Below, one piece after another: positions 29,314-30,834 of a stretch of 64,000 nucleotides of DNA; the stretch's first letter is position 1, and each line of letters opens with the position of its first letter. Source of the stretch: Escherichia phage EC.P1; sequence record PQ657772.1, one strand, 5' to 3'. The translations under genes and the position numbers were made by a program. The notes under the pieces were generated by a model. It saw only the letters and a list, made by a program, of their open reading frames with translations, did not search any database and was not told the origin of the DNA.

Positions 29314-30241
29314 ATACAGCCATTGGTGCTTTGATTGTTGGCATTGGATCGTAATTAACCAATTTGAAAGAATCCATAGTGAAATCTTCAATATCAGTAA
29401 TAGTAGGATCTAACCATAATTCTGGTAATGTACGCGGTTCACGTTGGAGTTGCTCTTTTACTTGTTCAATATGGTTTTGATAGATATGGCAGTCGCCACC
29501 ATTCCAAATAAATTCACCAACATCTAACCCTGTAATTTGTGCAATCATATGAGTTAGTAGTGAGTAACTACTAATATTAAATGGCACACCAAGGAATAGA
29601 TCAGCACTACGTTGATGAAGAATACAACTTAGTTTACCCTGTACAACACAAAACTGCACAAAGCTATGACAGGGTGGCAAAGTCATAGCATCAAGCTCAC
29701 CAACGTTCCATGCACTTAGAATGTGACGACGACCGTATGGATCAGTATTGATACCTTCAATAACTTGTTTTAGCTGGTCAGTTACACGACGCATAATAAC
29801 ACCATGTGAACCAGTATAATCAATAACTTTATACCCTTTATCTTTTAGTTCTTGAATTTCTTCAGTACTGGAACTGAATTTATAATCTTCCCATTCACGC
29901 CATTGTTTACCATAAACTGGGCCAAGCTCACCATCAGAATACCCAAGGCTTACACCTTGATTAAGGTAGTTGTCTGTCCAAATTGTTTTCTTTTCTACAT
30001 CACGTGTCCCGTGTAAAATTTCACACAGACGACGCTCATCGTGAGAACCTTCAATAAACCATAACAATTCTGAAGTCATTGCTTTCCAAGCCAAACGTTT
30101 AGTAGTTACTGCTGGGAAACCTTCTTTTAGGTCAAAACGCATTTGTTGTCCGATTAGCTTGATAGTGCCAACACCAGTACGATCAACGCTTTCGACACCT
30201 TGATCCAGAATTCTTTGATATAGTTCTTGTAGTTGTTTCAT
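29312..30241 (-). CDS. thyA: thymidylate synthase (ThyA type, with an approx. 45-aa insertion)
   Basis: Collinear with E. coli ThyA: RTGVGT, TTKRLAW, ELLWFIEG, catalytic Cys in PPCHSFVQF, QRSADLFLGVPFNI with the dUMP-specifying Asn retained. Confidence 0.9.
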   Translation of the reverse strand: MKQLQELYQRILDQGVESVDRTGVGTIKLIGQQMRFDLKEGFPAVTTKRLAWKAMTSELLWFIEGSHDERRLCEILHGTRDVEKKTIWTDNYLNQGVSLGYSDGELGPVYGKQWREWEDYKFSSSTEEIQELKDKGYKVIDYTGSHGVIMRRVTDQLKQVIEGINTDPYGRRHILSAWNVGELDAMTLPPCHSFVQFCVVQGKLSCILHQRSADLFLGVPFNISSYSLLTHMIAQITGLDVGEFIWNGGDCHIYQNHIEQVKEQLQREPRTLPELWLDPTITDIEDFTMDSFKLVNYDPMPTIKAPMAV

Positions 30242-30834
30242 TTTACGTCCTTGAAAAATGTAATAAAGTGTTCCATGTGTTTTTGTGTAGCATTACGTGA
30301 ACCAATCCCAGTCCAGTTACCGTGTGGTGCTGGTATTGAGAATGTTTCAGTAAACTCTTTCAGTACTGTATCATAATAAAATACAGAGCGAGTGTTCATA
30401 TCATAACAATATATTTCTGGATTGTCAACTGAATCCATATACATCTGTACGGCCCATGCAGTTCCACCTGAAACTTGCGTAGGTGATGTAATATTTGCAA
30501 TACAATATACTCTTTTTGTATTAAGTATCTGGTAACTATTCCTTGCAAGTAAGTTATATACATACGAACCAGGCTTAGGAACTTTACGGCGTAAAGAGTA
30601 ACATGCAATGTTTAATTGTTTTAATATTGAACTATCACAAAGGATATTGGGTGGAATTTCTAATATAGTATTTTCATCTACGCTGCTTTGGTGACCCTTG
30701 AATGAAAAATTTATTACTTCAAATCCATTGTCTTTTGCATAGATAGAAAAAAGGCGGTCAGCACCTGCTGCCCCGCCACTGAAACATACATTAGATAAAC
30801 CATTGATTGCTTCATCTAATTCTATTTTATTCAT
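30238..30834 (-). CDS. hypothetical protein with Rossmann-type GGAxGxD motif (SLOG/DprA-like fold candidate)
   Basis: N-terminal VCFSGGAAGADRLF resembles the nucleotide-binding signature of the DprA/LOG (SLOG) superfamily; 4-nt overlap with thyA. Confidence 0.4.
   Translation of the reverse strand: MNKIELDEAINGLSNVCFSGGAAGADRLFSIYAKDNGFEVINFSFKGHQSSVDENTILEIPPNILCDSSILKQLNIACYSLRRKVPKPGSYVYNLLARNSYQILNTKRVYCIANITSPTQVSGGTAWAVQMYMDSVDNPEIYCYDMNTRSVFYYDTVLKEFTETFSIPAPHGNWTGIGSRNATQKHMEHFITFFKDVK

Follow-up and report, generated by a model that had tools for sequence, protein, structure and literature searches.

In viruses, most SLOG domains fall within the YpsA-like clade. They are found in 31% of jumbo phages and occur fused to Macro, NADAR and DUF4326 domains and, in scattered cases, to guanylate kinase and enzymes of nucleic acids (PMC7824862, PMC9503650). 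Surveys by the Aravind group (2021-22) predict that these viral domains, which are experimentally uncharacterised, degrade immune signals resembling cyclic ADP-ribose (cADPR) (PMC7824862, PMC9503650). The catalytic TIR, DrHyd and SLOG domains that have been characterised all act on N-glycosidic bonds (PMC9503650). The subject here is a gene for a SLOG-domain protein, adjoining the thymidylate synthase gene thyA, in a 64,000-nucleotide stretch of Escherichia phage EC.P1 (sequence record PQ657772.1); this whole stretch is called the window, and positions are counted from its first letter. That the product is a SLOG protein is already known, as it restates the annotation of a catalogued class whose viral members have been surveyed. 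The families compared below are taken as Pfam names and later papers define them.

Fold, motifs and family of the SLOG protein

An AlphaFold2 model built from an alignment of 50 homologs (mean predicted local distance difference test, pLDDT, 97; predicted template modelling score 0.92) depicts a single compact domain of 198 residues, with a predicted Rossmannoid three-layer alpha/beta architecture and with SLOG members as its nearest neighbours in structure. The SLOG/DprA-like Rossmann fold proposed earlier in a sequence-only reading of the window is thus correct. In fold comparison 3imk, rather than DprA, comes out closest; the ShosA antitoxin is among the matches, the cADPR-binding SLOG domain of ThsA scores only 4.4, and matches in BFVD include segments of crAss giant proteins and a helicase fusion. 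Sequence searches of the PDB with the single protein, the family profile and the relative P0200 returned nothing meaningful, and only fold comparison worked.

Conservation was computed over 250 family members. Six residues are invariant in all of them (G20, G24, D26, R98, T125 and G178), and S19, G21, A22, R83, N99, Q102, G123, G124, W127, A128, G176 and R180 are conserved in at least 95%. These residues make up four nearly invariant motifs, GIGSR, SGGAxGAD, LLxRNxxQ and SGGTAW, which are those of the SLOG superfamily as the feature used for membership is defined (PMC9503650). The motif on which the sequence-only reading was built, FSGGAAGADRLF, is present at residues 18-29; it lies in the best-conserved block of the family, far beyond chance. 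The GxD/E signature described for YpsA (PMC6459960) takes the form G24-A25-D26.

The motifs succeed each other in an unusual order. They run SGGAAGAD (from residue 19), ARN (97), SGGTAWA (122) and GIGSR (176) in the SLOG protein, whereas in E. coli Smf (DprA) the order is VVGSR, SGLARGID (read in Smf as TSGLARGID), RRNRII and SGSLVTA. The last elements of the model are a strand (174-178) and a helix (184-191), and canonical strand 1 and helix 1 stand at the C-terminus, which is the permutation that characterises cpYpsA. When family sequences were duplicated in tandem and compared with Pfam, the DprA model aligned across the junction of the two copies, from the C-terminal GIGSR and its helix into the N-terminal SGGAxGAD; the duplicate of P0109, for example, matched at residues 157-226 against profile positions 50-123 (E 1.6e-7, 31.2 bits against a cutoff of 29.6). 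It follows from this junction-spanning match and from the motif order that the domain is a circular permutant of the DprA/YpsA arrangement. The conserved motifs and the predicted structure together show a standalone, circularly permuted protein of Rossmannoid SLOG fold, belonging to the YpsA/DprA assemblage. With hhalign, the family profile gave non-significant alignments to the single E. coli Smf and PpnN sequences, including a local pairing of the RN motif with PRRNRII of Smf.

The sequence-only reading saw no obvious match to a standard enzyme, and the family had in fact already been catalogued. The protein matches PHROG 768, 'DprA-like DNA recombination-mediator protein', over the full length of the profile (E 4.7e-27, residues 4-164 against positions 23-184 of 191), and in near-identical phages GenBank labels it with the same name or as 'DUF2493 domain-containing protein'. 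Pfam scores are lower: YAcAr/DUF2493 (PF10686) is reached at 19.1 bits against a cutoff of 28.2 (E 0.0012), through the SGGAxGAD motif only (residues 15-44), and similar sub-threshold matches occur in 15 of 50 relatives. No match to cpYpsA (PF12694, cutoff 26.2 bits) was found for the SLOG protein at E<=1; the relatives P0200 and P0219 remain below that cutoff at 19.5 and 17.4 bits. The native sequence gives no match to the DprA family (PF02481), which seven of 50 relatives match at E>=0.006, and precomputed Pfam domains are absent from 104 close homologs. In an exhaustive profile search the family comprises 2803 clusters (50% identity), of which 769 score E<=1e-30; standalone proteins of 175-210 residues make up the majority. 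Only 17 cellular loci, mostly in Flavobacterium, were recovered by scanning 185,579 bacterial and archaeal species with one peptide pattern, a count that is a lower bound. The family is essentially viral in distribution.

Gene partners and the activity they suggest

The stop codon of the SLOG gene (TGA, 30240-30238) shares bases with the start codon of thyA (ATG, 30241-30239), and an AGGA element resembling a Shine-Dalgarno sequence lies inside the 3' end of the SLOG gene, a few bases 5' of the thyA start. The four-nucleotide overlap that the sequence-only reading reported, giving no strand, is therefore confirmed, and the coupling to thyA is real in this lineage. It does not represent a general pairing. 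Neighbourhoods were compared at 75 IMG/VR loci from 33 lineages, which share less than 60% SLOG identity with one another; the 80 loci returned were the best-scoring ones, a biased rather than a random sample. A thyA gene occurs within 6 kb of the SLOG gene at 14 loci, all from two of the 33 lineages, and an extra small open reading frame (ORF) separates the two genes in the RaK2-like Serratia phage BF and in 12 of these 14.

The dominant neighbour of the SLOG gene is instead a deoxynucleoside monophosphate (dNMP) kinase of the T4 gp1 type (PF21448, phrog_139). The kinase gene is directly upstream in 32 loci, with 27 of the 32 junctions overlapping or at most one nucleotide apart, and it is present within 6 kb in 40 loci from 16 of the 33 lineages. 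The pair persists through rearrangements (kinase-SLOG-sheath, SLOG-x-kinase, kinase-x-SLOG), and at some loci the two genes stand as a cassette of their own, encoded on the other strand from the structural neighbours. Isolated phages with this pairing include Agrobacterium phage Atu_ph07, whose kinase was confirmed by PF21448, and Sinorhizobium phage Phosso. In the lineage of EC.P1 the SLOG gene appears to have changed partner, going from the kinase to thyA or in the opposite direction. The kinase gene of the window is enclosed by a head-tail adaptor gene and a tail sheath gene (the two flanking genes, on the minus strand, are at 43451-46114 and 47212-48018), an arrangement that resembles the kinase-SLOG-sheath cassettes found in distant phages.

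Because of the coupling to the kinase and to ThyA, the reading ranked first is that the SLOG protein may be a nucleotide-monophosphate binder, probably cleaving N-glycosidic bonds, which acts on the dNMP pool; we give it a probability of about 0.35. By analogy with other SLOG domains, D26, R83, R98, N99, Q102, T125, R180 and W127 would line a nucleotide pocket, in which the arginine residues and the glycine loops would grip a 5'-phosphate, with W127 stacking against a base and D26, at the GxD/E position of the YpsA clade, contacting or attacking at the ribose. Gene context suggests as ligand a nucleoside or deoxynucleoside monophosphate from the DNA-precursor pool of the phage. Translational coupling ties the gene to thyA in this lineage and to the T4 gp1-type kinase in many others. 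Like every characterised catalytic member of the TIR-DrHyd-SLOG group, the protein might cleave or exchange the N-glycosidic bond of a subset of (d)NMPs, thereby editing or sanitising the dNMPs supplied to ThyA and the kinase, with Asp26 replacing the LOG-type glutamate. A non-catalytic role, dNMP-binding or regulatory, would be the fallback.

A narrower proposal is that the family comprises dNMP-directed N-glycosidases or transglycosylases, kept coupled to a dNMP kinase (to ThyA in RaK2-like phages), that remove non-canonical or signal-precursor deoxynucleotides such as deoxyinosine and deoxyadenosine monophosphates (dIMP, dAMP) or re-balance base composition at the monophosphate level. In this specific form it is a long shot. 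If the removal of dIMP or dAMP were true, it would blunt immunity triggered by the phage's own kinase, as in the Kongming pathway of deoxyinosine triphosphate (dITP), which T5 counters with the 5'-nucleotidase Dmp (bioRxiv 10.1101/2024.12.20.629578). In the anti-Kongming literature the phage countermeasure on record is this T5 nucleotidase and no SLOG protein. NARP3, which is PnuC/NadR-like, is unrelated.

Several observations weigh against a role in the dNMP pool. The thyA coupling is lineage-specific, and the association with the kinase may partly reflect inherited gene order, the lineages sharing synteny of the tail sheath and tail module. A search of a literature library found no experimental paper on the family, whether biochemical or genetic, nor any that connects SLOG domains with the dNMP kinases of phages. 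The LOG/PpnN motif PGGxGTxxE and its catalytic glutamate are absent, SGGTAWAVQ standing opposite FPGGVGTAEE of PpnN in a motif-level alignment, with V129/Q130 in place of the glutamate pair. The absence of the LOG general base also favours a non-catalytic nucleotide sensor that would regulate its partner, be it the kinase, ThyA or an embedding giant protein. Inactive SLOG domains do act as sensors, and published fusions of SLOG domains to guanylate kinase and nucleic-acid enzymes are read as sensor-activated systems (PMC9503650); the occurrence of the domain inside multidomain proteins fits such a role as well. Yet most members are standalone and lack a fused output domain, and the invariance of Asp26, Arg98 and Thr125 among 250 members whose divergence extends below 50% identity is more typical of catalysis, although compatible with specific binding. 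On balance a pure sensor seems improbable.

A further point against the dNMP-pool reading is that DprA, a binder of single-stranded DNA without known enzyme activity, has the same four motifs. A minimal DprA-like protein, as implied by the PHROG and GenBank label, would use its GSR, RN and SGxxTA motifs to grip a nucleotide of single-stranded DNA and serve recombination-dependent replication, repair or template handling. Identity of motifs and some neighbours that are DNA enzymes speak for it. The protein is nevertheless a single domain of 198 residues without SAM-like and winged-helix domains, its native sequence stays below the DprA threshold of Pfam, its closest structure is not DprA and its isoelectric point is neutral to acidic. 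The prevailing partners, moreover, are enzymes of small-molecule nucleotides, and similar jumbo phages reportedly have genuine DprA/Smf copies in addition (PMC7824862). Such a function is quite improbable.

Finally, the domain also occurs in contexts unrelated to dNMPs, which likewise counts against the first-ranked reading. Giant proteins carry it (profile E ~1e-50): in the N4-like Klebsiella phage Pylas it is found within the N-terminal third of the virion RNA polymerase (L006, 5001-5492), and the crAss-like phage cr113_1 has it inside a 4328-residue protein (L008, 4001-4477). Metagenomic giant proteins of 1700-4050 residues also contain it, several at about residues 760-1000: in P0192 (2942 residues) a NADAR domain follows about 85 residues after the SLOG domain, and in the 4050-residue polyvalent protein P0245 the SLOG domain is preceded by SprT-like, ART-PolyVal, SF1-helicase and DUF7831 domains. 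A nicotinamide adenine dinucleotide (NAD) synthase gene overlaps the SLOG gene at locus L104, an ADP-ribosylglycohydrolase gene stands two genes upstream at L106, and in Atu_ph07 a NAD synthetase gene is located two genes upstream. In eight loci of Flavobacteriaceae, mostly Flavobacterium and also Paenimyroides (L092, L094, L096, L098, L100-L103), a gene for an HTH-WYL regulator of about 300 residues lies directly or within three genes downstream.

Part of these contexts supports a counter-defence enzyme or sponge, whose pocket would bind ADP-ribose, cyclic ADPR isomers or related products of host TIR, SIR2 or ART proteins, sequestering them or cleaving the adenine-ribose bond. The Aravind group predicts precisely this for viral YpsA-like SLOG domains (PMC9503650, PMC7824862). 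The domains accompanying SLOG in P0192 and P0245 point in the same direction, as do the NAD synthase, NAD synthetase and ADP-ribosylglycohydrolase neighbours, which are minority contexts; SLOG domains carried by ejected giant proteins would act at the very start of infection, and the three conserved arginines could suit a diphosphate. Counter-defence is a serious if rather doubtful candidate. The domain thus has three telling settings: coupled to a dNMP kinase or ThyA, inside ejected giant virion proteins, and beside enzymes of NAD and ADP-ribose. It may be a so far unrecognised phage enzyme that edits the nucleotide pool, or a scavenger of immune signals, and the widespread kinase-SLOG cassette offers a testable handle on the activity of a large viral family.

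Other variants of the domain and its surroundings were noted. P0149 joins a histidine phosphatase to the SLOG domain. Neighbouring genes encode a calcineurin-like phosphoesterase and an ATP-dependent ligase at L072 and a peptide deformylase in Cr30 (L045). DUF7831 recurs, directly before the SLOG domain in P0245 (residues 1244-1385) and two genes upstream at L099 (2860-3216), on a contig binned with a Methanobacterium metagenome-assembled genome. Some of the Flavobacteriaceae loci lie in variable regions, for example L100, beside genes recognised by eye as type I restriction-modification genes. About 12 representatives (P0084, P0085, P0088, P0092, P0110 and others; Phosso, L007, 3983-4897) share a conserved C-terminal extension of about 100 residues with the motifs DIIYVP, GGWATV and KPD..ENN; a few strands and a helix are predicted for it, and the AlphaFold2 model of the 304-residue P0084 has a pLDDT of 49.

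Organisation of the locus

The window belongs to an Asteriusvirus, a jumbo coliphage; across 6 kb it shares 99.8% identity with Escherichia phage fEgEco12, and about 85% with 121Q and PBECO4. The SLOG gene is the third of a tight run of four genes on the minus strand, comprising a 76-residue ORF, a 217-residue ORF, the SLOG gene and thyA (table). The two ORFs are probably co-transcribed with the SLOG gene and thyA, the 76-residue ORF coming first, and their place ahead of the SLOG gene is conserved across RaK2-like phages. Within the RaK2-like jumbo phages the whole block of ATPase, vWA protein, small ORFs, SLOG and thyA is conserved.

Features of the SLOG-thyA region of the window and sequence motifs of the SLOG protein
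Feature	Position	Strand	Remarks
Bidirectional terminator-like hairpin	29280..29311	.	14 pairs, strong; shared end of the SLOG-thyA unit and of a convergent 654-aa gene
thyA, thymidylate synthase	29312..30241	minus	309 aa; Pfam PF00303 Thymidylat_synt, E 3.6e-101; phrog_160, E 1e-115
ATGA overlap of SLOG stop and thyA start	30238..30241	minus	read from sequence; tcat on plus strand
SLOG gene	30238..30834	minus	198 aa, ATG start; circularly permuted SLOG-domain protein, PHROG 768
TGIGSR, residues 175-180	30295..30312	minus	phosphate loop of canonical SLOG strand 1 (VVGSR in DprA), at the C-terminus here; G178 250/250, G176 98%, R180 97%
VSGGTAWAVQM loop and helix, residues 121-131	30442..30474	minus	equivalent to DprA SGSLVTA and LOG PGGxGTxEE; G123/G124 249/250, T125 250/250, W127 97%
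LLARNSYQ helix motif, residues 95-102	30529..30552	minus	equivalent to DprA RRNRII; R98 250/250, N99 96%, Q102 98%
SGGAxGAD loop, FSGGAAGADRLF, residues 18-29	30748..30783	minus	equivalent to DprA SGLARGID and YpsA GxD/E; G20/G24/D26 250/250, S19/G21/A22 >=97%
217-aa ORF, phrog_15894	30840..31493	minus	unknown function; 5 nt upstream of SLOG gene
76-aa ORF, phrog_13789	31496..31726	minus	unknown function; GenBank coding sequence EcMJ_297
Terminator-like hairpin (31802-31823), then promoter-like GGGACA-16-TATAAT with TG (31761-31788)	31761..31823	minus	consensus scan only
Gene pair: MoxR-type AAA+ ATPase followed by vWA/DUF2201 putative metallopeptidase	31836-33245 and 33321-34649	minus	upstream of the run
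T4 gp1-type dNMP kinase	46209..46835	minus	PF21448; adjoins tail sheath, ~15 kb from SLOG gene

The promoter-like site in front of the 76-residue ORF is a possible start of the four-gene unit, judged by its resemblance to the consensus. Two tandem sites with 12/12 agreement to the sigma-70 consensus (TTGACA-16-TATAAT with an upstream TG; 34913-34940 and 34821-34848, minus strand) are located about 4 kb upstream, ahead of the ATPase gene, with two hairpins intervening. A third sigma-70 site (11/12, 30400-30428) lies inside the SLOG coding sequence, about 160 nucleotides upstream of thyA. In the RaK2 record the MoxR-type ATPase and the vWA protein are noted as similar to N4 gp24 and gp25. The label 'HNH endonuclease' given to the vWA protein by PHROG and GenBank looks like a misnomer, as its Pfam matches are to DUF2201_N (E 3e-36) and a VWA-like domain, with none to HNH. 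Further upstream on the minus strand are genes for the tail sheath, the tail tube and virion structural proteins, and downstream are convergent tail-fibre genes.

The sequence-only reading had placed the gene in an early operon with a role in nucleotide metabolism or DNA modification. 'Early' was an interpretation rather than an observation and is unsupported; the label is unverified because no transcriptome or virion-proteome data were found for the SLOG gene. The paper on fEgEco12, consulted for expression and virion-proteome data on RaK2/121Q-like phages, mentions neither the SLOG gene nor thyA, and in the omics paper on PA5oct a term search gave no hit for thymidylate synthase or DprA. As for function, the interpretation finds partial support, and its DNA-modification part is rejected: no partner gene for hypermodification, be it a glycosyltransferase, a hydroxymethylase or an amidotransferase, lies near the SLOG gene, and ThyA scores in Pfam as a canonical thymidylate synthase.

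Comparison with known systems

Several SLOG families resemble the protein without matching it fully. The LOG/PpnN enzymes, which are 5'-monophosphate phosphoribohydrolases, differ in that the catalytic glutamates of PGGxGTxEE correspond to V129/Q130 in the SLOG protein, which is permuted relative to them and shows no match at the sequence level. DprA possesses a SAM-like domain at the N-terminus and a winged-helix domain at the C-terminus. Compared with DprA/Smf (PF02481), the SLOG protein lacks both of these flanking domains, is shorter (198 residues against 374 in E. coli Smf) and is permuted, departing from the order GSR, SGxAxGxD, RN, SGSxxTA in that GIGSR comes last. It scores below the Pfam cutoffs of YpsA/YoqJ (PF06908) and of YAcAr (PF10686), only 30 residues matching the latter; YpsA itself is non-permuted and, in Firmicutes, linked with GpsB and with cell division (PMC6459960).

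The permutation is shared with cpYpsA, the 'circularly permutated YpsA SLOG family' (PF12694) represented by 3imk, a 'putative molybdenum carrier protein' from Syntrophus. We take 3imk to be a member of PF12694. The SLOG protein differs from cpYpsA by a helical insert of about 55 residues (46-104), by its essentially viral distribution and by a score below the family cutoff. The SLOG sensor domain of ThsA in the Thoeris system belongs to the same superfamily and provides a precedent for a SLOG pocket that binds a signal derived from ADP-ribose.

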